Origin: Scenedesmus sp. PABB004
Lineage: Eukaryota
Assembly: GCA_014905635.1 (NCBI GenBank)
Contig: JABVCE010000003.1
Location: forward strand, 1,116,001-1,180,000
Direction: 5' to 3'
Length of the DNA stretch: 64,000 bases
Below, in pieces: positions 12,153 through 64,000 of the stretch. Every line of letters starts with the position of its first letter. Within the stretch, counting starts at the first letter, position 1. Under the pieces are notes generated by a model. It had not been told where the DNA came from and made no database searches. It worked only from the letters and a program-made list of their open reading frames with translations. A program made the position numbers and the translations under genes.

Positions 12153-14089
12153 ATGGGCAAGGACTACTACGCCATCCTGGGCGTGGCGAAGAACGCAACC
12201 GATGCGGAGCTCAAGAAGGGTGCGTGCTGCGGCGGCGGCGGAAGCGGAGCACGCGCGCACGGGCCGCCACCGCGCGGCCGCCCGACGCCGCACCGCCCCC
12301 GCCCGCGCCGCGCAGCGTACCGCAAGCTCGCCATCAAGCACCACCCGGTGCGCAGCGCGCGGCGCGACGCCGCGCTGCGCTCTCGGTCCCTGCAGGCCGC
12401 CGACCAGCCGCGCGGCGCCCGCCGCCGCCGCCGCGCTCGCGCCGGGCGCAGGACAAGAACCCGGACAACGCGGCAGCCGCCGAGGAGAAGTTCAAGGAGA
12501 TCAGCGAGGCCTACGACGTGCGCGCTGCACGCCCTGTTCCCCCCCCCCCCCCCCCCCCCGTGCAGCGCCCGCGCGCCGCGCTTGCAGCGCCGGGCCCGGC
12601 CCACGCCCCCGGCCCGGCCCACGCCGCCGCGCCCGGCCGGCCCACGCCGCCGCGCAGGTGCTGAGCGACCCGGCCAAGCGGCAGGTGTTTGATGCCTACG
12701 GCGAGGAGGGCCTCAAGGCCGGCCCGCCGCCGCCGCAGTCGGCGGCATCGCAGAGCCAGGCGCCGCGCGGCGGCGCGCCCGGCGGCGCGTCGCCGTTTGG
12801 CGGCGCCGGCTTTGCGGGCTTCGCGCCGGGCGGCTACTCGGGCGTCGACGCGGCGCGCGCGGCCAACATGTTTGCGTCCCTCTTTGGCGACGCCTTAGGC
12901 GGCGGCGGCGCCGGGCCGCGCAGCCGCGTGCGCATGTTCAGCCGCAAGGGCAGCGCGGGCGGGCCCGAGGCGTTTGCCGACATCTTCGGCGGGCCCGGCG
13001 CCGGCGGCGGCGCGTTTGGCCGCGGCGGCGGCGGCGGCGGCGGCCCGGCGCAGAAGCGGGCGCGCCCGGCCGGCAGCGGCACGGGCGGCTTTGCGTTCGG
13101 CGGCGGCGGCGGCGGTGCGCGCGGCGCGGCGCGCGGCGCGCCCGCCGCGTGTCCCGCCGGCCCGCCGCCCACGCGGCCCGCCCGCCCGCCCGCCCGCGCG
13201 CCGCGCAGCCTCGGACGACGAGTTTGACGCGTCGGTGCTGAGCGACTCCATCCTCGACCGCAAGCCGCGCCAGCGCTGCATCAGCCTCGCGCTCACGCTC
13301 GAAGAGCTCTACACCGGCACCACCAAGAAGCTCAAGGCGCGGCGCGGCGCGGCGCGGCGCGGAGCGCGAGGCCCCGGCGCCGGCGCGGACACGCGACAGC
13401 GCGCGCGCGGCGGGGGCGCGCCGGCGCGCCGGCGCGCCCCGAGCGCCGCGCCGCGCCATGCGCGCCGCCGCGCCGCAGGTCACGCGCCAGGTCTTTGACG
13501 ACGCCGCGGGCCGCTCGGGGCGGCAGTCGAGCGTGATCGAGGTCCCTATCAAGCCTGGCTACAAGGCGGGCACCAAGATCACCTTTGCGGGTGCGCGCCC
13601 CGCGCCGCGCGCAGCGCGGGGCCCGAGGCGCGCGCGGGTGGCGCGCCGCGCCGCGCAGCTTTTGAGCCTGCGAGCCCCGCGCGCGCTGCGCTGCGCCGCG
13701 CCGCAGGCATGGGCGACCGCGAGCCCGGCCGGCCGGCGGACGACCTGGTGTTTGTGATTGCCGAGAAGCCCCACCCCGTGTTCACGCGCCGCGGCAACGA
13801 CCTGCACGCGGTGCTGACGCTGCCGCTGCTCGACGCGCTGCGCGGCGGCGCCGGCGCGGCGCTCACGTCGCTCGACGGCCGCCGCGTGCCGGTGCCGCTC
13901 GGCGCGGGGCCGGTGCAGCCGGGGGCGACGGTGCTGGTGCGGGGCGAGGGCATGCCCATCAGCAAGCCGCCGCCGGGGCGGCGCGGCGACCTGGTGGTCG
14001 AGGCCAGGGTCACGCTGCCGGCGCTCAGCGCGGCGCAGCTCGCCGCCCTGGGAGAGGTGCTCGGCGCGCAGCCGCAGCCGGCGGCGTGA
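12153..14089 (+). CDS. Class II DnaJ/Hsp40 (DNAJB/Sis1-like), 7 exons
   Basis: J domain MGKDYYAILGV...AYRKLAIKHHP|DKNP...KFKEISEAYD|VLSDPAKRQVFDAYGEEGLK, G/F-rich region, C-terminal LTLEELYTGTTKKLK...IKPGYKAGTKITF..GD...DDLVFVIAEKPHPVFTRRGNDL...GEGMP..GDL; no zinc finger. Confidence 0.93.
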
Positions 14090-14385
14090 CGTGGCGGTGC
14101 TGGGCCCTCGTGGTGGTGAGCGGAGGGGCGCCCCGGAGCGAGCTGCGCCCCTTGGCCGCGGGCGAGGGCTGTTGAGCCCTGGCCTGCCGGTGACGCCGCC
14201 GTCGGCACGCCGTCGCACCGCGCCGCCTGGCCTGGACGCCGCGCCCCGCCACCGCGCGGCAGCACTCCCGGCCGCTGTGCAGCAGCGCCGAGCCCGCCCG
14301 CGCCCGCGCCGCGCTCCTCGCCCTCCAGGTCGACGCCCTCGCTGGTGAGCGGGTTCGCCGCCGCGCGCCGCGGCAAACGCGTGCG

Positions 14386-14392
14386 TATATAA
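14386..14392 (+). promoter_or_regulatory. Putative TATA box of the downstream secreted repeat-protein gene
   Basis: TATATAA in an otherwise very GC-rich context ~385 nt upstream of ATG 14776; a likely 5'UTR intron ends at CAG 14763. Confidence 0.5.
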
Positions 14393-16441: not shown

Positions 16442-17810
16442 ATGGCGCCGCGCGCCGCCGCGGTCGCGCTGGCGCTGCTGGTGGCGATGGGTGCGCGCCG
16501 CGCCGCCGGCGCCCCGCTGCGGCACGGGACCGGCCCGGGCCGCCCCATTGCCCAGTCCCTCACCACCCAGCGCCGCCCACCCCCGCCGCCGCGCCCGCCG
16601 CGCCCGCAGCCGGCCCCGCGAGCGCGGGGCGCGCGCTCTCCCAGTTCGCGGGCGCGTACGGCGTGCTTGACAAGCTCGCCAGCCACCCGCTCGCCTCCAA
16701 CATCGCTGACGACGTGAAGTACCACGTGGCGGAGATCAAGGACCACCTGCACAAGGACAAGCCGCAGCCGGTGCAGCAGGCCGTCGCGCCGCAGTACGTC
16801 ATCACACAGCAGCCGCAGTACGTGGTCGCGCCCATGCCCCAGTACGCGCCCGCGCCCGTCGTCGCCGCCCTGCCGCAGCAGGCGCCCGCGCCGGCGCCGC
16901 CGCCGCGCGAGATGACGCTGCCGGTGCGGCGGCGCCGGCAGCGCGGCGCGCGGCGCGTGGCGCACGGCGCGCGGCGCACGCGCCGCCGCGCCCCGTGCTG
17001 CGCTCACCGGCGCGTCCATCGGCGCAGATCATCCGCCCCGAGATCAAGCCCGTGGTGATCCCGCTGCCGCTGCCGATGCTGGTGCACCCCAAGAAGCTCA
17101 AGCTCGGTGCCGGCGCGATGGCGTTCGCCAAGGCCGTGCTCGGCACCGACGACAGCGAGGACGACGACGACACCACCACCACCACGACCACGACCGTGGT
17201 CACGGCCAACCCCTCGGCGCCGCCGCCCGCGGCCGTGGAGGTGCCCGTGCCCTCCGCGCCCGCCGCGGAGGTGCTCGCCGCGCTGCCCGCGCCCGTGCAG
17301 GTGATCGCCACGAGCCGCGCCGCCGCCGCCAGGCTGAGGCTGCTGCGCCTGGCAGCCTGCAACCCGCAGCGCCGCTGACGGCGACGGCTACCGCCGCCCG
17401 CGCCGTGGCGCCCCGCCCCGCAGGCGCCCGCCGTGGCGCCCGTGCCGACCGCGGCCAACCCCTCCACGCCGCCCGCGGAGCTGATCGGCACCGAGGTGCC
17501 CGCGGCGCCCATGCCCGCCGTTAGCGGCGCGACCGTCATCGCCGCCGCGTCCGCGCCCGTGGCGGCGCAGACCGTGCTGCCGACATTCCAGCCCATGCAG
17601 GCGCGGCGCGGCGCGGCGCGGGGCGAGCGCACGGCGGGCCGCGCGGTCTGTCGCGCCCGCGGTCCGTCCCACGCCTCGCCACCCGCTGCTGACCCACCCG
17701 TTGACCGGCTGGCGCCGCAGGTGGTGGCCGTGCAGAACTCGGTCAACGGCCAGGGCTTTGTGACGGGCCAGGCCTACGGCGTCGCGCCGGTGCAGGTGGT
17801 CCAGGGCTGA
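16442..17810 (+). CDS. Second secreted PQYV/Pro-Val-rich protein, 5 exons
   Basis: Signal peptide MAPRAAAVALALLVAMAGPASA plus GRALSQ, then PQYVITQQPQYVVAPMPQY, an acidic DDSEDDDD/poly-T segment, a Pro/Ala/Val-rich region and the ending GQAYGVAPVQVVQG*. Confidence 0.75.
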
Positions 17811-18218: not shown

Positions 18219-21200
18219 ATGCTTTCCGGCGAGGCCCGCGCGCTCCGCCTGCTGGGCCGGCGCTCGCTCGGTGTGATCATAGGCGCCGGGCGGCACCCGG
18301 CGCACGCGCGCTCGCTGGCGACCGCCGGCGGCAGCAGCAGCGGCGCCGGCGCGAGCGACGGCAGCGGCGCGGGCGTGGCGCCCGCCATGGCGGTGGACGT
18401 GACGCGGGAGAACTTTGCGGATGCGCTGCCAGCCATCAAAGACGCGCTCGAGCGCTGTAAGCGGCGGCGGCGGCGTGCACGGCGCGCTGCGCCGCCGCTG
18501 GCCGCCGCGTTGCCGCCGCTCCACACGCCCCCGCGGCCGCGGCCGCCGCGGCCGCCGCAGGCTCCTTCTACGCCTTTGACTGCGAGATGACGGGCCTCTT
18601 CACCGACGGCAACCGCCACGACTTCCTGGACGACATGCAGGCGCGGCGAGTCTCTCGCCCTCGCGCGGGCGCGCGGCGGCGCCCTGGCCTCGCCTCGCCG
18701 CGCCTGCGCCGCCTCGCCGCACGCCCTCCTCACACACACACTCCGCCTCTCTCTCACCTCTCTCAGGTATGCCAAGATGAGTGAGAGCGCGCGGGCGTAC
18801 GTGATCACCCAGTTTGGCCTCTCCTGCTTCGAGCCGGCCGGCCCGGGGGCCTACGCCGCGCGGACGTTCAACGTCTTCCTGTTCCCCCAGCCCCACGGGT
18901 CCTACAACCGCCGCTTCCTGTGCGACGCCGGGTCGCTCGCGTTCCTCGCGTCGCACGGCTTTGACTTCAACGCCTGCATCCGCGACGGCGTGCCCTTCAT
19001 GCCCCTGCGCGCGCGAGACTTCCAGCTGCTGCAGGCGCGGCGGGCGCGGCGGGCCGCGCGGCAGCCGGGCAGAACGGATTCGCCCCCGCGGGCGCGCGCC
19101 GGTAGCCAGTGCTCGCCGCTGGCGTGCGCCCGCGCGCCGAGGCGCACCGCCCGCGCGTGGTCCTGCCTGCGCGCGCGCAGGTCAACCGCACGTACGAGCC
19201 GCGCAGCGCGGCGGTCGCGGGGACGGACGAGGACAGGGCCTTTGTGGAGGGCCTCGTCGCGCTCGTCACCGCCTGGGTCGCGGGCCGCCCGCTGCCCGCG
19301 CTGCCGGGCGTACCGCCGCCGCCGCCCGGCGACGGCGACGACGCGCCCGGCAGCTCCTCGGACGAGCCGGCCGGCGACGGCGGCGGCGGCGCGGCGCCGG
19401 GCGCGGAGCTGGCGCTGCCGCCGCTGAACAGCTTCAAGCGCCTGCTCGCGTACCAGGAGCTGCGCAAGCCGCAGTTTGGCGTCGAGGGGCACCCGGGGTT
19501 CTGGGTCAAAAAGGTGTGCGCGTGTGTACGTGCGCACGCGCTCGTGCCGCGACCGCCACGCACGCCGCCCGCGCGCGCGCGCGCGCGCATGCTCGCGCAC
19601 GCTCACGCCCCCGCGCCCGCGCGCGTCGCAGACGGAGGACTCGCGCTGCCTCGTGCTCGTGCGCTGCAGCGCGGCCGAGGCGGAGGCGTTCGAGGCGGGC
19701 GCGCGCGCGGCGCGCGTCACCGCGATCCACGACGCCGCGGGCTTTGCGGCCGTGTTTGACGCGATGCGCCGCAGCGGCAAGCCCGCGGTCGTGCACAACG
19801 GCCTCTTTGACGTGGCCTATTCCCTCTACTCCTTTGCCGACGCGTACCTGCCCGCCACGTGAGGGTTCCGGGGCTCAGGCGGCTCCGCGCGCCGCGACGC
19901 GGACCGCACGTGCACCGCACATGTCGGCGGCGGCGGTTGCGCGGGCGGTCGCGGCCGCGCCGCGCGTGACTCGCCGCTGCCGCCCGACCCCCACACACCC
20001 CAGGTGGCGTGACTACAAGGCCATGATCCGGGCCTGGTTCCCGGGCGGCATCTACGACACCAAGTACCTCGCAAAGCAGCTCCCAGAGGTGCGGGCGCGG
20101 CCGCGTGTGTGTGCGTGTGCGCGTGGGTGTGCGCGTGGGGGTCACACGCACACACGCGCGCGCGCGCGCGCGCGCGGCGGCGCGGCCGTGGCGCGCGCGC
20201 CGGCGCCCGAGCACCGCCGCCGCCGGCGCCGCGGCGCAGGTGTTTGCCGACCCGCGCGACACCGCGCTCGCCGACGTCTACGCCGCGCTCGTCGAGCGGC
20301 GCGGGGGGCCGGGCGCGGCGCCGCTGCTGCGCGCCGCGTCGGCCGCGCTGCGCGGCGCGCCCGTGGCGCTGCCGGCCGTGGCGCACGCGCCGGGGTTCGA
20401 AAAGTACCGGCACCTCGCCGCGGGCCAGGCGGCGCACGAGGCGGGCTACGACGCGTGGATGACGGGCGCCGCGTTTGCGTGCCTGCTGCCGCTCGTCGTC
20501 GGCAAGGCCGCGGCCGAGCCCGGCGGCGCGCTCGGGCTCGCCGCGGCGGCCGCGGCGGCGGCGCGCGCCGCGGCGGCCACGCCGCAGCCGGGGCAGCAGC
20601 AGCAGCAGTCGGAGCAGCAGCAGGGGCAGCAGTTGGAGAGGCAGCAGCAGCCGGAGCAGCAGCAGGCGCCGGCGGAGGCGCAGCTAGCGCAGCAGCAGGC
20701 GGCACAGGAGCAGGAGCGGGGGGCCGAGCAGGCCGAGGCGCCGGGCGAGCTGGCGGCCGCGCTGCTGGCGGCCGCCGAGGGAGTCAAGGGCCGGCTCAAC
20801 ATGACCTTTACAGACATTGACTACGCCGCGCTGGCAGGCGACGACCCCATCCCAGAGGTGTGCGCGCGTGCGCGTGGTTGGGTGGCGGGTGGGCGGCGGC
20901 AGCGGCCGTCCAGGCGGGACCCGCGCAGGACCCCGCATGCCCGCGGCCGCGCTGCGCGCCGACTCGCCGCCGCCGCTCCGCGCCGCCGCGCGCCCGCAGC
21001 GCCCCGCCATCTTCCACGTGAGCGGGCTGGCGCCCGGCGCGCGCGGCGACGAGGTCACGCGCCAGCTCACGCGGCTCGGCGTGCGCGTCGTGCGCGTCGC
21101 GCCGCTCGAGTCGACGGCCGCGCTCGTCGAGGTCACGCCCGAGTGCACCGACCTGGTGCTGGCCGCCGTCGCCGAGGCGGACGCGGGCCTCGTGGCCATC

Positions 21201-23427: not shown

Positions 23428-26400
23428 CTAGGAGGGCGCGCCGAGGTAGGCGGCGAGGCGGAGCAGGTCGCTGAAGACGCCGCCCGCGGTCACCGCCGCG
23501 CCCGCGCCGGGCCCGCGCACGATGAGGGGCTGCGCCGCGCCGTAGCGCTGCGTCGTGAAGGCGATGATGTTGTCGCTGCCCGCGAGCTGCGCAAACGGGT
23601 GGCTCGCGGGGTACCTGGCGGGGTTTAGGGGTCGTGCGGGCGGGCAGGGTTTGGGTTTAGGGCTCAAGGGCGGAGACGCTGGGAGCGGTGCCCGCTTGGG
23701 CCGAGCACCGCGCCAGCGCGCCGTCCCGGCGGCCGCCCCGCCGCGGCGCCCGCCCAGCCGCGCCGCGGCGGCGGCGCAGGTCCTCACCGCCGCAGCTCCA
23801 CGCTGCCCTTGCCCGCGGCGACGTCGACGACGCCGACGTAGCGCAGCACCTCGCCCGCCGCGCGCGCGGCGTCGAGCTTGGCCGCCATGTCGGCATCAAA
23901 CTCCGGCAGGCGCGACAGGTACTCGTCCGCAGAGCCGCACGCGCGCAGCGGCTCAGGCACCTGCCGCGGCGCGGCGCGACGCGGCGCGCGGCTCAGCTGC
24001 CAGCCAAAACACCCCGGCGCCCCCGGCCCGCGCCGCCGCGCGCCGCGCCCTGAGCCCTGAACCTCGGCCCCGGTCCCTGAACCCCGGCGCCGCGGCGCGG
24101 GCGCACCAGTGACTCCACGGGGATGTCGTCGAGCTCAATCATCAGCCCGCACTCGCGCGCGAGGATGGCGACCTTGCGCGCGACGTCGGTGCCGTTGAGG
24201 TCGTCGCGGGGGTCGGGCTCGGTGTAGCCCTGCGCGGGCGCGCGTGTGTGTGCGCGCGCGTGCGTGCGCGTGCGTGCGTGTGAGTGTGTGTGAGTGTGTG
24301 TTGCGAGGGCCCCGCCCCCCTCCCCTGCGCCGCGCCGCGGTCCGCCGGGCCGCAGCGCCGCCGCGCCGCGCGCCGCGCCTGCGCGCGCGCGTCCGCCACG
24401 ATCTCGCTGAACGGCCGGCCGTCGCCAAAGGTGTTGAAGATGTAGGAGAGCGTGCCGCTGAAGATGCCCTCCACGCGCACCGCCTTGTCGCCCGTCTCGA
24501 GCAGGTGCTTCAGCGTGCCGATGATGGGCAGGCCGGCGCCGACCGTGCCCTGCGCACGCACACGCGCGCGCGCGCGGCGGGGTTGAGGGCGGTTCAGGGC
24601 GCAGGCGTGGGTGGTGGGTGTGTGCGGGCGCGGGGCGGACCCTGAACCCTCAACCCTCAACCCACACGCCCACGCCCACACAGACGACGGCGGGGCGGGG
24701 TGGTCGTGCGGCGTGCCGGCGTCGTTCGCGACGGCGACAATCGACTTTGTCGTCATCGAGAACGGCACCGGCGCGCCGCGCGACCACGCCCGCCTTGCTG
24801 AAGGACGCGGGCGTCCGACCCTGGGTCCCTTGACGCTCAACTCTCAACCCTCGACCCTCGACCCTCGACCCTCGACCTCCACACCCACACACCCACACCA
24901 CACACACCCAGACAGCCACCGCCACGCACACCCAACCACCAACCCACACCAACACACAAACAAACACACTGGGCCACCCACCTCGTAGAAAAAGTGGATG
25001 TACGACTCGCGCTGCATCTTGCGCACCGCCGCGTAGCGCGCGAGCGGGCCGCTGCCGAGCTTCTTGTTGGGCGTGATGATGTTGATGCCCTTCGTCATCC
25101 ACTGCGGCGCGGGCGCGTGGTTGGCGGGGCAGCAGGGTTGAGGCGCGCGTGAATAAGCAGGGTCGAGGGTGTGAAGGTGCGCGAGTGCGTCAACAGGGCG
25201 CGGCGGGGCGCGGCGCGGGTGCAGGAGGAGGAGGAGGAGGAGGAGGGGGCGTGCGAGGCCCGCTCGCGCGGCGCGGCGCGCGCCGCGCTGCGGAGCGCGC
25301 CGCTGCGGCGCGCCTCGAGGTAGTGCCCCGGCGGCGCGTCGCTCGCGGTGCAGTCAACGAGCGCGAGGTTTGGGATGTAGCTGCTCGCGAGCGCGTCGCC
25401 AAAGGCGGTCAGGTCGTTGGGCACCTGCACGCGGCGTGGGTGGGTGTGCGCGGGTGTGGGTGTGGGTGGGTGGGTGTGGGTGGGTGTGGGTGGGTGTGGG
25501 TGGGTGCGGGTGGGGCGGGCAGGGAGGGGTGAGGGTGGCGCGCGGGGAGGGCGTGGCAGGGGCGCGGGGGGCGCGAGGCGCGGGGGCGGAGCGAGGCGCG
25601 GACCGCCGCCGCTGCGGCGGGCGCACCTTGCCGGTCGCCCACTCCTCGCGCCAGTTGGTGAGGTCGAGGCCGCCCTCCGAGGTGAGCATGCCTGCGCGGC
25701 GCCGCGCCGCGGTCAGCCCGTCGCTGTGTGCTGTGCGGCCCGCCGCTGCGTGCTGCGCGCGTGCTGTGCGTGCTGCGTGCGCTGCGCGCACCCGTGGAGT
25801 CAGCGATGCCGAGCACGCGGATGTCAATGTTGAACTCCTCGCGCAGCTGCGCCGCCTGCAAAAGGGGCGCGCGGCGGCGGCGAGGCGGCGCGGTGCAGCG
25901 AGCGCGGGGCGCGGGCGCGTGAGCGCGCTGCAGCAGCCGCCGCCGCAGCGCCGGCCCGCCCCCGCCGCCGCGCCGCGCCTGCTCCGCGAGCTGGTCGATG
26001 AGGGTGCCGCCGATGAGGCCGGGGCCGACGATGCCGACGCCGATGGGGACGTCGCTGAGGTAGAAGCGGGAGTGCACGGCGCGCAGCGCGCGCTCACTGT
26101 CGCGCTGGTCGATGAGCACCGTGATGTTGTACTCCGACGACCCCTGCCGGGCGGAGGAGGGGGAGGAGGGGGAGGGGTGAGTTAAGTGTGTGTGAGTCTG
26201 TGTGCTGCGATGGATGCGCGGGAGTTTGGAGAATGGGTCGGGGGCGGGCCGCGGGGCGTCCTCCCGGCGGCGCTGCCGGCGGCGGCGGCGGCCCCGCCCG
26301 CAACGCACGACGCCCTGGCCGAGGGACTGGCCCGCCGAGCGAGCCGCGCCGCGCGCCGCCGCCGGCGCACCTGTGCCATGGCCTTGAGGTTGACGTTGGC

Positions 26401-29400
26401 CTTGGCCAGCGCGCCCATCATCGTCGCGGCGACGCCCTTGCGCTGCACCATGCCCTGCCCCACCGCCGCGAGCACGCAGCAGTCGTCGATGCGCTCGACT
26501 GCCGACACGCTGTGGTTTAAGGAGAGGTGGGGCGGGGCGGGCGCGTGAGGCGCGGGACCGCGCACGTGCGCGCGGCGGCGGGGCTGCCGCGGCGACGGGG
26601 CCGCTGGCGCGCCGCAGCGCGACGACCGCGCGAGGCCCCGCGCGCGGCCCCCGGCGCGCAGCGCACCGCCCGGCGGAGATGGCGTCAGCAAAGCGCTTCT
26701 GCAGCACCGCGACCGCGGCGTCGCCCTCGCTGCCCTTGACGGCGAAGCAGATGGAGTGCTCGCTGCTGGCCTGGCTGATCATGATGACATTGACGCCCGC
26801 GTCGCGCACCGTCGAAAACACGGCGCTCGCGATGCCTGCGCACGCCGGCGCGGCCGCGGCCACGCGCGCGCGCGAGCACGCGAGGTGAGCACAGCGGCGG
26901 GCGGGCGCACGCGCGCGCGGCGCGGGCGCGCGGCGGCGGCGGCGCGGTCGGCGCCCGGCGCGCCCCGGGGCGCCCCACCGCGCGCCGCGCGGGCCGAGCA
27001 GCGCAGCCGCGCGCCCCGCGGCGCGCACCGGGCACGCCGACCATGCCGGTGCCCTCAATGTTGATGAGGCAGACGTTGTCGATCGTGGCAAAGCCCTTGA
27101 CCGTGACCTTGCCGTCGTTGATCTCCTTCTCAGACGCCAGGTCCAGCACCTGCGTGCCTGGCGGGCCACACACAAAGCAACACGCACGCGCACGGGGCAA
27201 CGCGCAGCGGCCGCGCCGTGAGCGGGGATGGCGGCGGTGGCGCCGCGGCCGCGCGCGCGGCGGCGCGGGCGGCGCGGGCGGCGCGCGCGGCTTGCTTGGC
27301 GGCCGCGCGCGCTGCGCCTGGCGCGCACCGGGCGCGGAGAGGTTGAAGAAGTTGCGGATCGCGATGGGGATGCTGTACTTCATCGCCGGCAGCGTCGTGC
27401 GCGGGTGCAGCACGTTGGCGCCAAAGTAGCTCAGCTCCCACGCCTCGTGGTACGTCAGGCTCGGCAGGCACACCGCCTCGGGGACCTGCGCGGGCCGGGC
27501 AGGCGCGTCGGCGCCGCGCCGCGTGGCGCGCGCCCGCGCCGGCCCCGCGGCGCCGGCGGCCCCGCGCCACCTCCCCGCCGCACCTTGCGCGGGTCGGCGC
27601 TGTACACGCCGTCGACGTCGGTCCAGATCGTGATGTGCCCGCCGCGGAAGAGGCTGCCCAGGATGGTCGCGCTGAAGTCGCTGCCGTTGCGCTTCAGCGT
27701 CGTCGCCTGGCCCCTGCGAGGGCGGGGGCGCGCGCCGCGCTCGGCGCCGCGCGGCAACAGCCGCCGCCCGCGCCGCAGCCCCCCCCCCCCTCTGCCGCCC
27801 GCCGCCGCTCCGCCCGCCCGCCCGTCCGCGCGGCCGGCCGGCCCGCCAGCTGCGCGTCGCGTCGCGTCGCGTCGGCGGCTCACTTGTGGTTCTTGGCGAT
27901 GAACCCCGTCGCGACGATGAGCTTGTGGGACCCGTGGTCGCGGAACCAGGCGTCGAGCTTGGCGTTGGACGCGGCCTCGTCCAGGTCGACGCTTGTGCCG
28001 TCGGCGGTCGGCGACACGACGAGCACGTCGCGCGTGTCCATGAACGCCACGTCCGCGCCCGCCTGGCGGCAGCTCGCCGCGAGCAGGCAGGCCGACCAGA
28101 GCTCGCCGTGGCCGACGACGAAATCGACAAACGCGTCGGTCGCCATGCCGGCTGCGCGCCGCGGCGGACGCGGACGACGACGCGGCCCGCGCGTTGGCAC
28201 GCGGCGCGGCGACGGCTGCGCGGCGCGCGGCGCCTGGGCGCCGGAGCCCACGCCCGGCGCCGCGGGCGCGGGCGGCGCTGTGAGCGCGCGGGCGGGGCTC
28301 ACCGATGCAGATGGCCTGCAGCATGGCCTTGAGGTTGCTGATGTCATCCATGAGCCGGCTCACAAAGCTGGTCAGCTCGGGGCCCTGCCCCAGCAGCGCC
28401 TTGGCCGTCTCGACGTGCTTCTCCTGCGAGGCGGCGGCGACGGCCGCGGCGGCGGCGGCGGCGGCGTGAGCTGCGCGCGGTGCGCGCGCCCGCAGCGCGC
28501 GCCCGCAGCGCGCCGCCAACCGCCGCGCGACGCGCCGCGGCGCGCCTGCAGCGCGGCGAGGTCGACCAGGAAGGCTGCGTCCTGGCGCGCGGCCTTGTCG
28601 ATCATGTTAAGGATGAGGTCGGTGACCTTGACGGGGCTCTCCGGCGAGCTGCCCATCGCCGACACGACGACGACCTTGGACTGCTCGGCGTCCGACATCA
28701 TCTGCGGCGCGGGGCGGGCCGGCGCGGTGGGCCGCCGCGCGGCGCGGCGGCCGGCCGCGCGGCCGCAGCCCGCTGCCGGTTGCGAGGCTGCTGCCGCCGC
28801 TGCCGCCGCTGCCGCCGCTGCTTGCTGCAGGCACCGGTGCAGGCAAGCAGTGGCACGCATCCAGGCGCGGCGCTCGTGCCCGTGCTGCGCCGTGTGCGTG
28901 GGCCGCCCGGCGCGCTGCTCACCAGCTCCGCCACCGCCTTGAGCCTGTCGGGGCTGGCCATGCAGGTGCCGCCGAACTTGTGAATCTGCGGCCGCGCGGC
29001 GCGGCGGCGGCGGCGGCGGGGCGGGCGCCGGCGTCGGCGGAGCGCTGCGGCGCGCCGCCGGCTGGGTTCCACCGCCCCCGGAGGCGCGCCAGGGCGCGGC
29101 CAGGGGCTGCAGCCTGCGGGTGAGCTGCCGGGCGCAGCCTGGCCGGGCGCCGGCAGGGCGTGGGCGGGGCCAGACGCCGATCCCTGCTCACCGCCCAGTG
29201 GGTGCCGCGCGGCGCCTCCTCCACGGCGGTGGCGCTGCGCTCCGCAGCCACAGCCCTCACCGCCACCGCGCCGCGCCGGCTGCGCGGCGCCTGCGCGCCG
29301 GCGCGCCGCACGGCAGCGGCAGCAGCGGGCGCCAGCCCGCAGCGCTGTCCCGCCCGCGCCATGCCGGCGGCGGAGACGACGCCAGAACTGAGCGCGGGCG

Positions 29401-32359: not shown

Positions 32360-32397
<38 letters not shown>

Positions 32398-39186: not shown

Positions 39187-39271
<85 letters not shown>

Positions 39272-46822: not shown

Positions 46823-46913
46823 AGCGCCGCTCAGCGCGCCGCTCAGCGCGCCGCTCAGCGCCGCTCAGCGCGCCGCTCAGCGCGCCGCTCAGCGCGCCGC
46901 TCAGCGCCGCTCA
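46823..46913. repeat. 10-12 bp tandem repeat (GCGCGCCGCTCA), about 8 units, overlapping the ABCG stop codon
   Basis: Repeated CCGCTCAGCG(CG) between the convergent CID and ABCG genes; each unit reads TGA on the minus strand. Confidence 0.85.
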
Positions 46914-49900
46914 CGGCGCGCGACGAGCACGAGCGCCGCAAGCGTGAGGGCGTGCAGGCCGGCCAGGTTGGCGGCGAGGATGGCCATGCTGAAGCCGAAG
47001 CCCCGCCCCGGCCCGGGGCCAAAGAAGTAGTCCAGGACCGCGCCGCCGTCCACGGCGCAGCCGCCCTGGTCCGAGCCGAGCGCCGCGACCGCCGCGCCGC
47101 CGCCGCCGGGCAGCAGCTGCCCCAGCAGCGCGGCCGCGGCGGGGTCGGCCGCGCCGGGCGGCGGGCAGGGGAAGCGGCGGCCGCCGAGCTCCGCCGTGGC
47201 CATGGCCTCGAGCGACCACTTTGCGGCCGCGAGAAACCGCAGGTTGCTCAGCCCCGGCGCCCTGATCTCGCGGGCGGCGATGAAGAAGCCAGAGTTGACT
47301 GCGCGCGGCGGCGCGGCGGGACGCGCGCGGCGGCGGCGCGGGCGCGTCGGGCGCGTCGGGCGCGTCGGTGTGGCGGGCTGGCCAGCCCGCCGCGCGGGGA
47401 CGGCGCCGCCGCCTCAGGTCCCCTGAGCCCTGAGCCCTGAGCCCTGAGCCCTGAGCCCTGAGCCCTGAGCCCTGAGCCCTGAGCCCTGAGCCCTGAGCCC
47501 TGAGCCCTGAGCCCTGAGCCCTGAGCCCTGAGCCCTGAGCCCTGAGCCCTGAGCCCTGAGCCCTGAGCCCTGAGCCCTGAGCCCTGAGCCCTGAGCCCTG
47601 AGCCCTGAGCCCTGAGCCCTGAGCCCTGAGCCCTGAGCCCTGAGCCCTGAGCCCCGTCGCGCCTAGGTTAAAACACGTATAAAAGATCCCCATCATGAAG
47701 GCAAGGTCCTGGTTGGGAGCAACCGTGGCCGCCAGGTGCAGCACCTGGCGCGGCGCGCGGCGGCAGGTGTGGCGCGTCGCGCGGCCGGCGACAGGCTGCA
47801 CTGCGCCGCGCTGCAGCGCCGCGGCTGCGCCGCGTGCGTGCGGCGGCGCTGCGCGCCTGCACCGCGACGAGCGAGGTGAGCACGCCGACGGCGCACTGCG
47901 CGGAGACGGCGCCCGCGCCGGGGCGCAGCCCCGCGAGGCCATACTGCGTGAGCACCGCCGCCAGCGCGGTGAGGGCATGAAGCGGCGTGTGGACGACGAC
48001 CTGCGGCGCGGGGCAGGCGCGCGAGGGCACGAGCGCGTGAAGGCCGCACGGGCGCGCGGCGCGAGGGCTCAGGGCTCGGCGCTGGGCGCTGAGCCCTGCG
48101 GCCGCGCGCCTTGGCGGCGTAGAAGGCGGAGGGCGCGTAGAGCCTGGCGCCGCGCTCGGCCAGGAAGATGGCCCTGTCGTCGATGAAGCTGCGCGCGTTC
48201 ACGCGGCGGCGGCGTGGGGTCAGCGCGCGAGCTCAGCGCCTGCTGAGGCACACTGCGCCGCGAGCCCGGGCGGCGCGCTCGCTGACTCCCCGGTCCGGGC
48301 CTCACAGGCTCATGCTGACATAGGGCATGAGCAGCAAAAAGCAGAGGGAGCTGAAGAGCAGGTTGAGGCGCAGGCGGACGGACCCCGCGTGGGCGGGCAG
48401 GTCGTAGAAGAAGGCCGACACCATGAGGGCGACCCACACAAACACCAGCAGCCTGGCGGCCGGCGGCCGAGGCGGCGGGGCGAGTCAGGGCAGGCGGCGG
48501 TGGCCGGCTGGCTGGCGGGGAGGTCTCTGGGCCGGCCCACCTGCCGGCAATTTCGGCTGGGTTCCTGGTGGCCACCAGCGTCTCACGCCACACGAGCGCG
48601 CGGAACTGCTGCCACCAGCTCGCCGGGTAGCCGCCGCCGCCTGCGCCGCCGCCCGAGCCGCCGACCTGGCCCTGCGGGCTCGCGCTGCTGCTGTCGTCGC
48701 TGCCGCTGTCGCCGCTGGCGCTGCTGTCGGTGGCGGCGTCAGAGCCGGGCGCAGCGACGTGGATCGCCACCTCGCCGCGCGGCTTGCCGCCCCCGCGCTG
48801 CGCGGCGAGGCCCTCAAGCACCCGCGCCGCCTCCGCGAGCGTCGCCGGCGTGGCCGCCTGGCGCTCGCGCTGTTGGTCCAGCGCGTCGGGCGCGCCGTCG
48901 CTGCCGGGGAGGCTGCCGCTGCCGCCGCGGCTGAACGGCCCGCCGGGCAGCCGCGCCGTGCGCGCCTGCGGCGGCAGCCCCGCCGCGCCGCCCCGCTCGG
49001 CGCCGGCGCGCGCGGCGGCAAACGCGGCGGCCGCCGCCTCCAGCTCCGGCGGGCTGGCCATCGAGCCGACCAGGTCCAGCGCCCAGTCGCTCGCGAGGCC
49101 GTGCGCGGCGGGGTCGTACGCGCGACCGAGCTGCCCCGACAGCCAGGGCGCCAGCCCCGCCGTCGCGCCGTGGTACGTCAGCCGCCCCTGGGCCAGCAGC
49201 GTGACCTGCGCGTGCCGGCGGCGCAGTCAACGCGGCTGCGCGCCGCGCCGCGCCGCGCGCGCTGCGAGCACGCAGCGCGGCGCTCGCGCGCCGCGCGCAC
49301 CGAGTCGAACAGGCCCCAGATGGCGGAGCGCGGCTGGTGGATGGCCGCGAGGATGACGCGCCCGCCGCCGGCGCGCGCGAGGCCGCGCAGCTGGCCCACG
49401 ACGCTCAGCGCGGCGGCGCTGTCCAGCCCGCTCGTCGGCTCGTCCAGCAGCACCGCGTCGGGGTCGCCCAGCAGGCCGCCCGCGATCGCGAGCCGCCGGC
49501 GCTCGCCGCCGCTGAGCCCGCGCAGCAGCAGGCCGCCGGGCAGGCGGCCGCCCACGAGCGTCCCGCCGTGCGCCGCGAGCCCCACCGCCGCCAGCGCGTC
49601 CCCCGCCGCGCGCGCCTGCAGCTGGCTGCCGTCGCCGGCGGGGCCGCGCGGCAGCTGCATCGCGGCGGCAAAGAGCAGGACCTCGGCCGCCGTCAGTGTG
49701 GGCAGCAGGACGTCGTCCTGGGGCACGTAGCGGACCCGGCGCGCGAGCTCGCGCGCGCTCGCCGGCCGGCCGCCGAGCAGCACCGCGCCGCCAATGCTGC
49801 CGGTCGCCTTGCGGCCGGCGAGGACGTCGAGCAGGTGCGACTTGCCCGCGCCGCTCGGCCCGAGGATCGCGCCGAGCTCACCTGCGGCCGGGCGGCCGCG

Positions 49901-50262
49901 CCGCCCTTGCTTCCCTCACGTGCTGCGCGACTTGGCGCGCGCGGCGCGCACGCACCTGGAGAGGCTGCGCCGGAGACGCCGCGCAGCACGCACGCCATGC
50001 CGTAGGCGACGCTCAGCTCGCGCCAGGCCAGGGCGGGGCGCGTCCGAGTGCACGCGACTGCCACGCGCCCATCGCTGCTTGGAGCAGCTCGAGCGGCTGC
50101 ACCAGCTCGCGCGCGCCGCCTGCGCAGCCGGCCGGGCCACAGCCGCAGCGCCGCGCGCGCGAGGAGCGCGAGCGCGATCGCGTGGGCCAGCACCACAGCT
50201 GGCGCCCAGAGGCGCGCGTCGGCCATCTGCAGCGTCGGGCTCGTCCCAGAGAGCTGGCGCAT
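46901..50262 (-). CDS. ABCG (White-like) half-size ABC transporter, about 8 exons; start at 50262 or 50226
   Basis: Walker A GPSGAGKS, YVPQDD..PTLT, signature LSGGERRR, LLDEPTSGLDS, AIHQPRS, YPASWWQQFRAL, DRAIFLAERGARLY and an ABC2 TM domain in NBD-TMD order. Confidence 0.92.
47421..47651. repeat. Perfect (CCCTGAG)x33 heptamer array, telomere-like, in an ABCG intron
   Basis: 231 bp equals 33 exact copies and fills most of intron 47299-47662. Confidence 0.95.
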
Positions 50263-50511
50263 GCGCCGCAGGCTGCACGCGCCTGCCAGCGAGCAGGTCA
50301 AGCTACGAAAAGACGGTGGGATGCGCGCTGCGGGCTGGCGTGCGCGGCTGACCGACCTGGGGCGGCGGGTGCGGCAGCGGCGGCGCAGGACGCAGAACCA
50401 CGCCGCCCGCCCGCGCGCCGAGCCGCCCTCGGTGCTGCCCGCCCGCTCAGAGCTCCGCCGCAGCCCCCTGACGGCAGCTCCACCCCTGACGGCAGCTCCA
50501 CCCGGCGCCCT

Positions 50512-53018
50512 ATGGCGTCGCTCACGCTCGGCGGCGCGCAGCCGGTGTTCCTGCTCGACTATGCGGTCTACAAGCCGCCCGAGGAGCTGCGCGTCGACCG
50601 CCAGCTCGCCGAGGAGCGCGGCAAGGCCTGGAGCGTGCGTGCCGAGCGCGCGGCGCGCGCCGCCCGCCGCGCGCTGCAGCGTGCGCGACACCTGCCGCCC
50701 ACCACACCGCGCGCCCCCGCCGCCGCGCGCCGCGCAGATGTACAGCGACGCGGCCAAGGACTTCATGGTGAAGGTGGTCACGCGCTCCGGGCTCAGCTCC
50801 AACGGCACGTTCCTCCCCGCCGCGATCAACCCGCTGCTCGCGCCCGAGCCGCGGCACGACATGGCGACCGCGCTCGAGGAGGCGCGCGCCGTCATGACCG
50901 GCGCGGTCGAGGCGCTGCTGGCCAAGACGGGCCTGCGCGCGTGCGACGTCGACATCCTGGTCACCAACTGCAGCATCTTCTGCCCGACGCCCAGCCTGGC
51001 GAGCATGCTGGTCAACGCCTTTAAGTTCCGGTGCGCGGGCTGCGCGGCGCGGCGCGCGCGCTGGCCTGGTGGCGCCGGGCGGCGGCTCGAGCCGCCGCAA
51101 GCTCCCGGCTGCCTCTGAGCCCCCGCTGACCCGCCGGCGACCGCGCCACGCCGCCGCGCCGCGCCGCGCCGCCCAGGCCCGACATCCAGAGCTACCACCT
51201 CGGCGGCATGGGCTGCGGCAACGGCGTCATGGCGGTCGGCCTCGTGCGCGACCTGCTGCAGGCGAGCCCGCCCGCCCGCCCGCCCCCTGCACACCGCGCA
51301 CGCGGCGCAAGCTGGCGCCCGCACCACCACGCCCCACACTCGCCGCCGCCGCGTGCCGCGCCGCGCGCGCCCCTGACCAGGCGCGGCCCAACTCGGTTGC
51401 CCTCTTTGTGCCGGCTGAGATCACAACCTACGCCTTCTACCCCGGCTCACACAAGACCTACATGGTGGCACCCGCCGCGCCGCCCGCCGCGCCGCCCGCG
51501 CGCCGCTCGCGCCGCGCAGCACAGCGCCGCGCGGCGCGCCGCCGCGCCGCGCCGCGCGCGCGCGCTGCGCCGCTCGCCATGCTCACCGTGCGCGGCGCTC
51601 ACCGCGCGCGGCGCTGCCCCTCCCCGCGCCAGGTGGCCAACGCCATCTTCCGCATGGGCGGCGCCGCGGTCGCGCTCACCAACCGGCGCGGCGACGCGGC
51701 GGCCGCCAAGTACGCGCTGGTCGCCAACTCGCGCGTGCACACCGGCCAGGACGACGCCTCGTACGGGTGCGCGCCGCGCCCCCGCGCCCGCCGCCGCCCG
51801 CGCAGCCAGGGCCCTGCCGAAAGTGCCGAGCTCCGCCGCCCCCGCCCGCGCGCCGCCGCCGCGCTCTGCCGCGCGCCGCGGCCGCGCTGCCGCGCATCCA
51901 CGCACACGCCCCAAAAGCTGCATGAGCTGGGGCCCCGACCCCGACGGCGTCAACGGCGTGTACCTTGGCAAGAATGTCGTCGCCTGCGCGGGCGCCGCGC
52001 TCGACGCCTGCCTGCGCGCCGTCACGCCGCGGGTGCGGGGCGCGCGCGAGCGGGCTCGGCCCGCGCACGCGGCCGCCGCCCCCGCTGACAGCCGCCGGCG
52101 CCGGCGCCGGTGCCGCGCCGCGGCCGCGCCAGATCCTGACCTGGTCGCAGTACGCCGAGGCGGCCGCGGACGCGCTGGGCCGGGCGGTGCGGGGCCCGCG
52201 CGGCCGCGCCTGCTATGTGCCCGACTTCACTCGCTGCGTCGACCACTTTGCCATCCACGCGGGTGAGCGCGCGCGCGCAGCCGCGCCGGGCGGGCCGCGC
52301 CCTGAGCGCAGCCCAGCCCTGGGCTCTGTCAGGGCTCCGAGCGCTTGGCCGCCTCGAGCTCAACCGCCGCCGCCCCCTAAACCGCCGCCGCCCCCTAAAC
52401 CGCCCAGGCGGCTACGCGGTGCTCAAGGGCATCCAGGCCGGCATGCGCCTGCCCGCGTCGGCCATGCTGCCCAGCTTTGCCGCGCTGCGCGACTACGGCA
52501 ACACCTCCTGCTCCACCACCTGGTGCGCGGCGGCGCCGCCGCCGCTGCCGCTGCCGCTGCACTCGTGCGGCCGCCGGCGCGGGGGCCGCGGCCGCGACGC
52601 CGCCTGCGCGCGCCGCACGCGTGCCGCCCCCGGCAGGTACGTGATGGCCTACATGGAGAGCTGCGGCGGCGTGCGCAAGGGCGCGCGCGTGATGCAGGTC
52701 GGCATGGGCGGCGGCATGAAGGCGGGCGTCAACGTGTGGCGCGCGCTGCGCGACAACGGCGCGGTGCACCCCGCGTGGCGCCACCTCGCCGCGGCGCCGC
52801 TGACCGAGGCTGACCTGCCGCGCGCGATCGAGACGGCCGGCGGCCCCGCCGCCGCCAAGCCCGCCGCGGGCGAGCCCGCCGCGGCCGCCGACGGCGGCGA
52901 GCCTGCGGGCGGCAAGCCCGTCGCCCGCAAGCTCACCGTGGAGGTGCGCGCGTTCGCCGACGACGCGGCGGGCGAGCCGCAGCTCAGTGACGACCAGCTT
53001 GCCGACTTCGCGCACTGA
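50512..53018 (+). CDS. KCS: 3-ketoacyl-CoA synthase (FAE1/KCS family), about 9 exons
   Basis: PVFLLDYAVYKPP, DVDILVTNCSIFCPTPSLASMLVNAFKF, catalytic YHLGGMGCGNG, NAIFRMGGAAVALTN, YVPDFTRCVDHFAIHAGG, YGNTSCSTTWY and VWRALR. Confidence 0.94.
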
Positions 53019-60100: not shown

Positions 60101-61737
60101 GCCGTGCCGTGCCGCGCCGCGCCGCGCCGCGGCCGCACCTCGTCGTCGGCGCGGTTGCCGAAGGAGAAGCTCTCGATCGGGCTCGTCGCGCGGCCGCCGC
60201 CCGCCGCGAGCGTGACGCGCAGCGCGGCCGACGCGGCCGCGGGGCCGCCGCGCGGCATGCGGCCGACCTGGCCCGGCTGCGGCGAGTCTGGGGCGCGCGA
60301 CGCGGCAGGCGGCGGCGCGTCAGCTGCGCGGCCAGCAGCGCAAGCTCCGCACAGTCGCTGCGCGCGCGCGCGCGCGCAGCACCCACCGCGGCCCTCGCGG
60401 TCGTCCTCCGCCACGCACTCCAGCGAGCGCCCGACCACGAGCTCGGCGCCGGGGGGCCCCGGCTTGGCCAGCAGCGAATGGCTCTTGCTCAGCGGGCCCT
60501 CGCCCGACGCCAGCGAGCTCCACACGCTGCCGGCGCCCAGCGCCTCGGCCGCCGCGGCGAGCGCCGAGGGCGGCGCCGCGCTGCCGCCTGCCGCCGCGGC
60601 CGCGTGCTGCTGCTGCAACTGCAGCGCCGCCAGGCCAAACGTGGCGCTCGCGCGCAGCGCGTGGCTCGCGGCGAGCGCGGCGCCGCTGTCGCTGGAGCGG
60701 CTCGAGCCGCGGCGGCTCGCGTCGCCGCCGGAGCGCCAGCTCGGCGCGCCGGCGTCGGAGCCCGACGCGCGGCGGCTGCCGGCGCTGGCGCTGCTGGCCG
60801 AGCCGCGGCGCTTGCCGAAGAGCAGCGCGCCGAGGTGCTTCGCGGCGGCGCCCTGGTCGCCGGGCGCCGCGGCGTCGCCGAGGCGCGGCGCCGCGCCGCC
60901 GGGCAGGCCCGCCTGCCAGAAGCGCAACCCGCCCGCGGGCGCGCCGCCGCGCGGCGGCGCGCTCGCGCCCGCGACGGCGCTGCCCGGCAGCTGGAAGAAC
61001 CGCGGCCGCGCCGCCGCGTCGCCGCGCAGGTCGTCGCCGCCCGGCGCGCCGCGCGCGATGCTCGGCGCCCACCACATGCCGCGCCGCGCGCCGCCCTTGG
61101 CGGAGGCCGCCTGCTGCGCCGCGACGTGCTCGCGCTTGAGCGCGTGCAGCTGGTCCGCGTTGCGCTTCAGCGCCGCCAGCACTGCGCGGCGTGGCGGAGC
61201 TGTGAGGGGCGGGCGGCCGCGCCGCGCCGGGCGCGGGGCGCGGGGCGCGGGGCGCGGGGCGCGGGGCGCGGGGCGCGGGGCGCGGGGCGCGGGGCGCGGG
61301 GCGGCGCCACACAGCGCCACAGCGCCGCGCACCGTCGGGGCCGAGCGCCCCTGCCAGCTCCGCGGCGACCGCCTCCTTGGCCTTGGCCTGGCTCGCCGCT
61401 ACCCACAGCACCTGCGCGGCGGGCCAGGACGCTGTTGGACCCGCCCCTCGAGCTGCCGCCGGCGGCGCGCGGCGGCCACGCGCGGCGCGGCGCTGCGCGG
61501 CCGCTCCCGCCGCCGCAACCGCCGCCGCCGCTGGTCGCGCCGCCGGCGGCGCTGCCGACCGCGCGGCGCGCTCGCCTCGTGGGCGGCATCGTTGGCGGCG
61601 CGCACTACGTCGTCGTTCTGGCGGCACAGCGCCTGCAGCGCCTCCAGCAGGGCGTCGCCGCGGACGGGCGAGCTGCCAGCGCGGCCTGCTGCCGCCTGCT
61701 CGTCAGACGCGGCGGACGTCACCGTCGCGCCCGTCAT
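57101..61737 (-). CDS. Large hypothetical low-complexity (Ser/Gly/Ala-rich) protein, about 6 exons
   Basis: Successive minus-strand ORFs are joinable by plausible introns, with a helical N-terminus (LLEALQALCRQND...AVLAALKRNADQLHALKREH) and many RxxS motifs. No family recognised. Confidence 0.55.
61231..61300. repeat. (GCGCGGG)x10 heptamer array, intronic
   Basis: Ten exact 7-bp units within an intron of the 57.1-61.7 kb gene. Confidence 0.9.
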
Positions 61738-62147
61738 GGCACGGGGCGCACTGCCAGCGGCGCGGGCATGCGGGCTGTGAGCGAGGCGCGGGAGGCGCAG
61801 TCCTCAACGGGCCGGTCCCAGTGCTCCGCGAGGGGCGCCTGCCTGGCGCTGCGCCGCTGCGTTACGGCCGCGCTTTCGTTGCTGACGCCGATGAGCCGGC
61901 TGTTGGAGCCTCGCGAGGTTGAGGGAGCGGAGCCGCGCAGGTTCAGTTTTTTTGGCGCGTGACGCCGCCGCTCATCGCCGTCGCCCGCCTGCGCTGTGCT
62001 TGCCCGCAGAAGAGGCTCAACCACAGACCGCCCACGCGGCGCGGAGGCCACCACCGGTTGGCCGCCGCCGCCGCCGCGCGTCGCCGCCGCCGCTGTCGCT
62101 GCCGCCGCGCCGCGAGCGCCTGCGACGCGATCGGCAGCGCCCCCGCG

Positions 62148-64000
62148 ATGCCGGCGCAGACGGGCGCGCTGGCGCAGCTGGTGGGCCGGCACTTTCCGCC
62201 GCTCGCGTACGGCTTTGCGTACGGCAGCGGCGTGTTCGCGCAGCCCGGGCTCTACGCGCGCGGCGGCGCGCCGATGCTGGACTTCATCTTCGTGGTCGAA
62301 GACCCCCTCGCCTGGCACGCACAGGCGCGCGGCAGCAGCGGCCGGCGGCGCGCGTGCGCGGCGGCCGGTGCGCGGGCGGGCGCGGCGCGCGAGCCGCTGC
62401 GCCGCTCCGCGCCGCCGCCGCCGCGGCGCAGAACATGCAGCGCAACCCCCGGCACTATTCCTTCCTGCGCCACCTCGGCCCCGGCGCGGTGCGGTGGGGG
62501 CGCGGGCGCGCGGGGGCGCAACAATTCTGCCGGCGGGCGGTCGATCGGGGCCTGCCGCCGCCGCCGCCGCCGCCGGCGCCGCCGCAGGCGTGCGCCGTGG
62601 CGGACCGCGTCGGCGTGGGCGTCTTCTTCAACACCCTGGTGCCGCTGGAGGACCAGGCGCGCCGCGCGCGCGCGGCGGCGCAGGCGAACGCAGCCGAACG
62701 CGCGGCCGCCCGCCCGCCGGCTGTCGCGTCGCTCCGCGCCGCCACCACTGAGCCCCGCCCGCCGCGCGCAGCTGGTCAAGTACGGCGTGGTCAGCAGCGC
62801 CGCGTTCCAGCAGGACCTGCTGAACTGGAGCCACCTCTACGTCGGCGGCCGCCTGCACAAGCCGGTCGCGGTGCTCGCGGCGGGCGACAAGCCCGCCGCC
62901 GCGGCCGCGGCCAACCTGCAGTCGGCGCTCGCGGCGGCGTTGCTGCTGCTGCCGCGCGCCGCGAGCCTCACGGTGCGGCGGCGGCCCGGCCCGGCCCGGC
63001 CCGTGGAGGCGCCGCCGCCCATGCGCGCCGCCTGCCAACGCGCCCACCGACGCTCCCGCCGTGCGCCCGTCCGCCGCCCGCCTGCCCTGCCTGCCCCGCC
63101 TCCCCCGCCCCGCCCACGTTTGAGCCTCAGGACCTGTTCAAGCGCATCGCCAGCCTCTCCTACCTCGGCGACGTGCGCATGGGCCTCGCCGAGGACAGCC
63201 GCAAGGTCCAGCGCATCGTCGCGGGCAGCCGGCAGCACTTTGAGCACCTCTACCTCCCGCTGCTGCAGGCGCGGCGGCGGCGGCGCTGTTAGTTGCGGCT
63301 GCGGCGGCTGCAGCGGGGATGCGGCTGCGGCGGCTGCTGCTGCGGCGGCGGCTGCGGCGCGGCGCCGAGCGCGCACACGGCACTGCGGCGCGGCCGCCGC
63401 AGGCGCCGCCGTGGCGGGAGCTGGGCGTCGTTGCGGGCGCGGACGGCGTGGAGCAGGGCGGCGGGCGCGACGCGCAGCTGGCCCTCCTCGCGCGCCTGCC
63501 GGCGGTGCGCGCGGCACGCGGGGCAGCACGTGCAGCACGCGCAGCGCGTGCAGCCGCTGAGAGCCCGTCGCGCCGCGCCTTACAGGTGCTGCTCGCGCGC
63601 GTCGCGGCCAAGCTCGGCCCCGCGCTGCCAGACGCGACGGCCGCGGCGGCGGCGGCGGTCGCGGCGCGCGCCGCAGCGAGCGTGGCCGCGCCGCTGCCGG
63701 CGCTGCCGGACGCGGCGCGGCGCGACATTGCGGCCGCCGCGCTGTCGGCGCCACGCTACCAGCGGCTGCTCAAGTCGGGGCTGCACGCCATCGTCGCCGG
63801 CTCGAGCAGGCGCGGCCAAGCGGCGGCGACGCGGCGCGGCGGCAGCGCGGGGCGGCAGCAGCGCGGGGCGGCGACGGCGGCCGGGGTCGCTGAGCGGGCG
63901 CCGCCGCGCCGCGCTCTGCCCGCCGCCCCCGCAGGCGCCAGGCGGTGGCGGGGCTGCTGTACGCGGGGCCGGTGCGCTCGCTGCGGTACCTCGGTGCTAA
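62148..64000 (+). CDS. TAM41: Mitochondrial phosphatidate cytidylyltransferase TAM41/Mmp37 (3' end beyond window)
   Basis: FPPLAYGFAYGSGVFAQ, MLDFIFVVEDPLAWH|NMQRNPRHYS, GVFFNTLV, VKYGVVS...DLLNWSHLYVGGRLHKPV, IASLSYLGDVRMGLAEDSRKVQRIV, and ...VRSLRYLGA at the window edge. Confidence 0.94.

Follow-up and report, generated by a model that had tools for sequence, protein, structure and literature searches.

In plant and animal surveys, introns that begin with GC and end with AG (GC-AG introns) account for about 1.2–1.3% of introns (PMC6310983, PMC7072748). Far larger shares were reported by Iwata and Gotoh (2011), who gave 39.6% for Aureococcus anophagefferens, 22.2% for Micromonas pusilla CCMP1545, and 7.7% for Chlorella sp., tied these shares to the G+C content, and called their origin an enigma (PMC3033335). 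Here, we consider the GC-AG introns of Scenedesmus sp. PABB004, whose genome is described as comprising 39.8 Mb with 78.5% GC and 7,092 genes, with the lowest gene number and the most gene-family contractions within its order (PMC12571836). The window, i.e., the whole stretch of DNA that was analyzed, is 64,000 nucleotides (nt) long and corresponds to positions 1,116,001 to 1,180,000 of contig JABVCE010000003.1; all coordinates below are counted from its first letter, and a slash in a donor sequence marks the exon–intron boundary.

A sequence-only reading of the window had placed GC donors at 23 coordinates, and GC is indeed found at intron positions +1 and +2 of all 23, in the context that it quoted. 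Most of the proposed junctions turned out to be exact: at 16 of the 23 sites, comparison with homologous proteins indicates that the interval is left out of the coding sequence, and two more are supported by frame logic, while four are ambiguous and one (41954) has a GT donor nearby. Judged from these comparisons, the GC-AG introns of the window are confirmed as real and lie far above the usual level of about 1%; we infer that they are removed at the RNA level. It is very probable that they are ordinary U2-type spliceosomal introns with a GC donor; judging from the window, such introns may account for about one-fifth to one-quarter of those in the genome. Every acceptor that could be determined ends in AG (CAG for 22 of the 23 claimed introns), and exonic AG precedes 22 of the 23 claimed donors; the exception, 18646, has CG at the exon end and the donor GCGAGT, in which +4 is A and +6 is T.

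The evidence that carries this view comes from three genes, encoding a bifunctional aspartokinase-homoserine dehydrogenase (AK-HSDH), Tam41, and an ABCG half-transporter, which were analyzed with a profile-to-genome spliced aligner free of any donor model, the intron cost being equal for every starting dinucleotide. The AK-HSDH profile held 70 of 96 full-length sequences (the first 70 by id among 96 matches of 780–960 residues) and the Tam41 profile nine sequences, while the ABCG profile was built from 46 half-transporters, excluding the deposited protein P0131 and its same-genome paralog. Donors were restricted to GT, to GT and GC, or not at all, i.e., all 16 dinucleotides were allowed, and in the last mode all 11 GC donors claimed in these genes were picked exactly. 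In the order GT only, GT plus GC, and any dinucleotide, the scores were 3406, 3627, and 3628 for AK-HSDH, 995, 1185, and 1191 for Tam41, and 2005, 2095, and 2099 for ABCG. Other dinucleotides appeared in the unrestricted mode at the N-termini of AK-HSDH and Tam41 and in the ABCG linker at 48973–48706, all of which are unconserved; the remaining odd ones amounted to a 3-nt shift and a split of two AK-HSDH GT introns. These regions were excluded from the intron counts, and the reliable parts of the three genes contain 21 GT and 11 GC introns. The length of 10 of the 11 GC introns is not a multiple of three, so that excision is needed to keep the frame.

The four AK-HSDH introns lie on the minus strand at 24230–24378 (CAG/GCGCGG), 25102–25313 (GAG/GCGCGC), 25856–25978 (CAG/GCGCGG; 123 nt, in frame), and 28424–28545 (CAG/GCGCGC). 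For the third of these, a tblastn comparison with the homolog P0002 leaves a 41-residue gap that coincides exactly with the intron. In Tam41, on the plus strand, the introns were located at 62325–62431 and 62657–62771 (both CAG/GCGCGC), at 63269–63402 (CAG/GCGCGG), and at 63810–63934 (CAG/GCGCGG, phase 2); the acceptor of the 63269 intron is uncertain, being placed at 63402 by single homologs and at 63369 by the profile, with a donor that is constant in all runs permitting GC. The ABCG introns are located on the minus strand at 47299–47662 (TAG/GCGCGA; phase 1, 364 nt), 47745–47856 (CAG/GCGCGC; 112 nt), and 48001–48109 (AAG/GCGCGC). The 364-nt ABCG intron also carries, at about 47420–47660, some 10 tandem copies of a 21-nt unit, which in translation form a repeated string of seven residues.

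The 12 sites outside the three aligned genes were judged by sequence reading, Pfam, PDB, and one homolog search, and five of them are backed by homology. The intron of a DnaJ (Hsp40) gene at 13337–13478 (+; AAG/GCGCGG, 142 nt) is flanked by exons matching the PDB Hsp40 chain 2q2g_A at residues 3–26 and 39–60, with weak E-values (0.61 and 0.0049), and the interval contains no GT at all. In a CAF1/PARN-type ribonuclease gene, the exon upstream of the phase 2 intron at 18646–18766 (+; CG/GCGAGT, 121 nt) covers positions 21–46 of the Pfam CAF1 profile with its residues 1–25, and the next exon begins at profile position 50 with its first residue, so that positions 47–49 are filled exactly by two residues and one split codon. 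The CID-domain gene has an in-frame intron of 144 nt at 45150–45293 (+; CAG/GCGCGC). Here, PDB chain 4fu3_A (the RPRD1B domain) pairs its Q68 with Q98 of the query and its residues from 69 onward with query residues from 147 onward, thereby omitting exactly query residues 99–146, i.e., the 48 in-frame codons; the Pfam CID profile likewise runs from 3 to 62 in exon 1 and from 65 to 118 beginning at residue 3 of exon 2. For the FAE1-type 3-ketoacyl-CoA synthase (KCS) intron at 51262–51380 (+; CAG/GCGAGC, 119 nt), the Pfam FAE1 profile is matched at 134–160, then by a 28-residue exon that exactly fills 161–188, and then at 189–232; the sole GT of the interval would give an intron of 28 nt. The fifth intron, at 38903–38987 (−; AAG/GCGCGC, 85 nt) in a gene for a FUSC_2/ALMT-like membrane protein, again contains no GT, and the homolog P0269 reads RVEATADKVVVRVLGT unbroken over the junction. 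Used singly as Pfam queries, the following exons found no match: both DnaJ exons, exon D of CAF1, the middle exon of KCS, and the upstream exon of FUSC. Two repeats were observed nearby on the minus strand: the intron at the GT donor 38620 opens with two tandem 16-nt copies (38586–38620), each having a donor-like GTGCGG start, and a long (CCG)n run at 39191–39270 lies shortly before the acceptor at 39179 in one of the introns of the FUSC_2-like gene.

All 11 aligner-verified GC donors read AG/GCGCG, the 21 verified GT donors read GTGCG (13), GTGAG (6), or GTGGG (2), and G is present at +3 in 32 of 32. Exonic AG stands before 15 of the 16 homology-confirmed GC donors and before 7 of the 21 confirmed GT donors, as expected from the earlier proposal that GC donors occur only where exonic AG compensates. 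For the aligner-verified donors taken separately (11/11 GC vs. 7/21 GT), the one-sided hypergeometric probability is about 2.5e-4, calculated by hand from 18 AG among 32. The U12-type donor consensus is given as ATATCC (PMC3033335); the GC donors all read GCGCG or GCGAG, with no ATCC box in any of them, and are thus not of the U12 type.

The frequency of GC donors was estimated with an ab initio model that chains exons and had AK-HSDH, Tam41, and ABCG as its training genes; 12 of the 23 claimed sites were outside the training set. The model uses all 23 in every mode that permits GC, including the one that permits all 16 dinucleotides, and among genes with a score of at least 100 it predicts 82 introns with GT and 54 with GC. 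The decoy dinucleotides GG and GA are seldom picked; GG was chosen 8 times against 50 for GC, compared with a background GG:GC ratio of 1:2. No rate was derived from the 54 GC calls, since at least two of them are false and several are placed upstream of real genes or on the strand opposite them. When the ab initio introns were counted in the family-supported genes and the two false calls corrected, GC donors numbered from about 19 (minimum) to 27 (maximum) among 95 introns, i.e., 20–28%. A higher share, 11 of 32, is obtained from the three fully aligned genes, which is biased upward since these genes were chosen for carrying claimed sites. The sequence-only reading had estimated about one GC intron in five, which is a fair and slightly conservative value for this window and is to be taken as a one-window figure rather than a genome-wide one.

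Since GC is about six times commoner than GT in the window (background dinucleotide frequencies of 0.216 and 0.036), a spurious in-phase GC is a real risk, and the GC donors might be artefacts of hand-placed boundaries, the real donors being nearby GTs or the intervals being retained coding sequence. Several observations weigh on that side or otherwise counsel caution. The ab initio model overcalls GC, as at 1903, which lies inside a conserved PX motif whose real donor is the GT at 1972, and at 50653, where the call competes with the consensus GTGCGT at 50635; the latter was judged to yield the better-fitting protein. The motif AG/GCGCG also occurs without being a donor in the conserved PX exon (1901–1907, +), in exon 2 of the CID gene (45295–45301, +), and across the KCS acceptor (51379–51385, +), where its AG is the 3′ splice site, and thus a donor cannot be recognized from the motif alone. 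GT alternatives that fit the frame are available at three of the claimed introns, namely GTCTGT at 17646 (in frame) for 17601–17720 (+; CAG/GCGCGG), GTCGCG at 32040, giving a 43-nt intron, for 31983–32082 (+; CAG/GCGCGG, 100 nt), and GTGGCC at 61479, in frame and giving a 68-nt intron, for 61412–61575 (−; GAG/GCGAGC, 164 nt). Retention is possible for the in-frame and stop-free intervals at 17601 (120 nt) and at 30391–30483 (−; CAG/GCGCGG, 93 nt). The claimed donor at 41954 (41839–41954, −; GAG/GCGCGT) is followed 6 nt downstream, at 41948, by GTGCGCGC, a consensus GT donor in the same phase that would add two residues and has the commonest form among the verified GT donors; at this doubtful site, whose junction is spanned by no homolog, the nearby GT is the better explanation.

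As an account of the GC donors in general, misplaced boundaries are nevertheless very improbable. Forcing GT costs 90–220 half-bits in the alignments that contain the 11 sites, and the same GC donors return when any dinucleotide is free to be chosen. No GT exists in the intervals at 13337 and 38987, nothing longer than a 28-nt intron could be formed from GT at 51262, and the solved homolog leaves out exactly the 48 residues at 45150. Moreover, each of the 21 verified GT donors consists of GTG followed by AG, CG, or GG, unlike the alternatives for 17601 and 31983, which begin with GTC, and the one for 61575, which is GTGGCC; the 43-nt intron starting at 32040 compares with a shortest verified intron of 74 nt. 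The model described above uses both 13337 and 17601.

Two junctions are supported by frame logic. For the CAF1 gene intron at 19035–19180 (+; CAG/GCGCGG, 146 nt), the acceptor is out of phase with the GTs at 19102, 19109, and 19124, and introns begun at 19157 or 19160 would be shorter than 25 nt; the junction lies in a stretch that is not conserved in the Pfam CAF1 family. The intron after the second CXC domain of a tesmin/TSO1-like gene, at 32260–32405 (+; GAG/GCGCGC, 146 nt), contains one GT (32268), which is out of phase; the Pfam TCR domain stops just before the donor, and the junction falls in an unconserved region. The four ambiguous candidates are those at 17601, 30483, 31983, and 61575. 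At 30483, the internal GTs are out of phase, it is possible that the interval is retained as an insert rich in Arg, Gly, and Pro, and the gene had no family match in the Pfam scan of open reading frames. The 31983 candidate would separate the two CXC halves of the tesmin/TSO1-like gene. Between 31983 and 32040 (+), several 10–11-nt units resembling GCGGCCCGCAGC, each ending in CAG, provide a row of possible acceptors.

The composition of the window suggests how such donors could have arisen. Its G+C content is 79% overall and 76–81% along the whole 64 kb; the exons show a strong three-base periodicity with 95% GC at codon position 3, and the introns are 83% GC, with T making up 8.5% of their bases. 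Under this compositional pressure, T at +2 would probably have been replaced often by C. A C at this position appears to be acceptable when the remaining donor positions pair well with U1, through exonic A at −2 and G at −1 and through G at +1, +3, and +5, i.e., in the forms AG/GCGCG or AG/GCGAG, the pairing lost at +2 being offset by two extra exonic pairs. Donors that lack exonic AG retain GT, as GTGCG, GTGAG, or GTGGG.

The sequence-only reading had gone further and called for a permissive or altered U1/U6 recognition system. Changed machinery, such as a variant U1 5′ end, U6 ACAGAGA box, U1-C, or LUC7 that ignores position +2, would be compatible with the high share of GC donors and with GTGCG donors that match the textbook consensus poorly. 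Against it stands the dependence of GC donors on exonic AG (15/16 vs. 7/21), which an ordinary U1 would require. In Aureococcus and in both Micromonas strains examined, the 5′ end of U1 is the canonical AUACUUACCUG, in spite of GC-AG shares of 22–40% in Aureococcus and M. pusilla (PMC3033335). With a canonical U1 in other high-GC algae of the same state, no special machinery need be assumed, and on this analysis an altered U1/U6 as a requirement for the GC-AG excess is probably wrong; we regard changed machinery as improbable for Scenedesmus. An Rfam scan at the gathering threshold gave zero matches in the window and thus no small nuclear RNA (snRNA).

A broader reading, unlikely in our view, is that the donor is recognized as AG/GY with a degenerate +2, the recognition leaning on A−2, G−1, G+1, G+3, and G+5, that cryptic AG/GCG[AC]G sites have perhaps been purged, and that U1-C, LUC7, or PRP8 has perhaps changed. 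On both strands of the window, the 7-mer AGGCGMG occurs 93 times, 22 of these occurrences being claimed donors. It is under-represented relative to dinucleotide shuffles, which yield 125.8 ± 9.8 copies and reach at least 93 in 100 of 100 cases; the deficit may stem from selection that removes cryptic GC donors, or from oligonucleotide bias alone.

The preferred view of ordinary U2-type introns shaped by composition must also be set against two other origins. The GC introns might be copies of a mobile introner-type element in which the GC donor is already included. Both of the published algae rich in GC-AG introns carry introner elements, and many GC introns of the window open with similar GCGCGGCGCGGC strings. 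On the other hand, when 17 of the 23 GC introns were aligned with MAFFT, the mean column identity was 38%, with conservation confined to the opening bases and the CAG at the end. Such identity without a shared core is the level expected of low-complexity GC-rich DNA, and the lengths of the GC introns range from 85 to 364 nt. An introner-type origin was rejected, as the 17 aligned introns are not near-identical copies and have no common core; we leave it only a slight chance. Finally, the C at +2 might not exist in RNA, either through an assembly or polishing error or through a C-to-U edit before splicing. This is hardly credible: the same error would have to recur independently at no fewer than 16 sites, all of them preceded by exonic AG, and the zero mismatches of P0131 over 763 whole-codon positions argue for an accurate sequence.

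The practical consequence of abundant GC donors is the mis-annotation of the genes that carry them, and the prediction that standard gene predictors would mis-model such genes holds for at least one deposited model, that of the ABCG protein P0131 (“abcG22 [Scenedesmus sp. PABB004]”), the sole one that was compared. All 767 residues of P0131 map to the window, with zero mismatches at the 763 whole-codon positions. Its model (46904–50226, −) has five introns, all of them GT-AG after boundary shifts are resolved. The model exits an exon at 48319 via a weak GTCAGC and joins 48001, so that the conserved segment ending at the GC donor 48109 is lost; it then reads through the 112-nt GC intron 47856–47745 out of frame and leaves at a GT directly after the true acceptor, skipping the next exon. 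In total, two conserved membrane-domain exons are dropped, and the ABCG profile of 46 independent homologs favors the GC model over the P0131 structure. No protein containing the window’s own AK-HSDH exon (360–1148 aa searched) or Tam41 exon (299–954 aa) was present among the matches, and the deposited annotation may lack models of these two genes or contain faulty ones. Part of the low gene number (7,092) and of the gene-family contractions of PABB004 may likewise stem from predictors that forbid GC donors.

The window is nuclear DNA of a scenedesmacean green alga, with a dense set of eukaryotic genes. The Pfam gene map, for which 150 of the 734 stop-free open reading frames were picked by codon-periodicity score and scanned, includes a PX-domain protein, SKA2, an amine oxidase, DnaJ, the CAF1-type ribonuclease, AK-HSDH, the tesmin/TSO1-like CXC protein, an MFS transporter, the FUSC_2-like membrane protein, the CID protein, the ABC transporter, the FAE1-type ketoacyl-CoA synthase, an RRM protein, ribosomal protein L14, and Tam41. 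The nearest relatives of the window’s AK-HSDH and ABCG proteins are found in chlorophycean green algae. Orthologous AK-HSDH introns of relatives were sought in a metagenome scan, which returned 12 loci, the full-length matches among them being uninterrupted bacterial-type genes.

Abundant GC-AG introns are a known phenomenon, and it is their occurrence in this lineage at such an extreme G+C content that appears not to have been described in the papers searched. No account of GC-AG introns in Scenedesmus or its order was found in that literature, although the supplementary tables of the surveys may hold per-species values. A chlorophycean at about 78% GC is thereby added to the few algae known for frequent GC donors, and exonic AG is clearly seen to be the price of losing T at +2; if the AG/GY reading were true, a nuclear genome of about 78% GC would be a natural experiment showing how much drift U1/U6 recognition allows.

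As far as the cited surveys describe these systems, the closest parallel is with the algae of Iwata and Gotoh, which share with Scenedesmus a very GC-rich genome (Scenedesmus lying above about 65% G+C) and, as far as the window shows, a GC-AG share tens of times the usual 1.3% or so. The lineage differs, being Scenedesmaceae within the Chlorophyceae, the G+C content is higher (78.5% for the genome, PMC12571836, and 79% for the window), and the share given here is a one-window estimate rather than a genome count; a strict dependence on exonic AG is shown for the window. Like the U2-type GC-AG introns of plants and animals, those of the window start with GC, end with AG, and compensate through a better match at other donor positions; unlike them, they are about 15–25 times more frequent and have a donor core of GCGCG or GCGAG. 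The copepod Eurytemora affinis resembles the window in using an unusual donor dinucleotide at high frequency, but its odd donors are GA and GG, for which a variant U1 isoform has been proposed (PMC7072748), whereas the window uses only GC.

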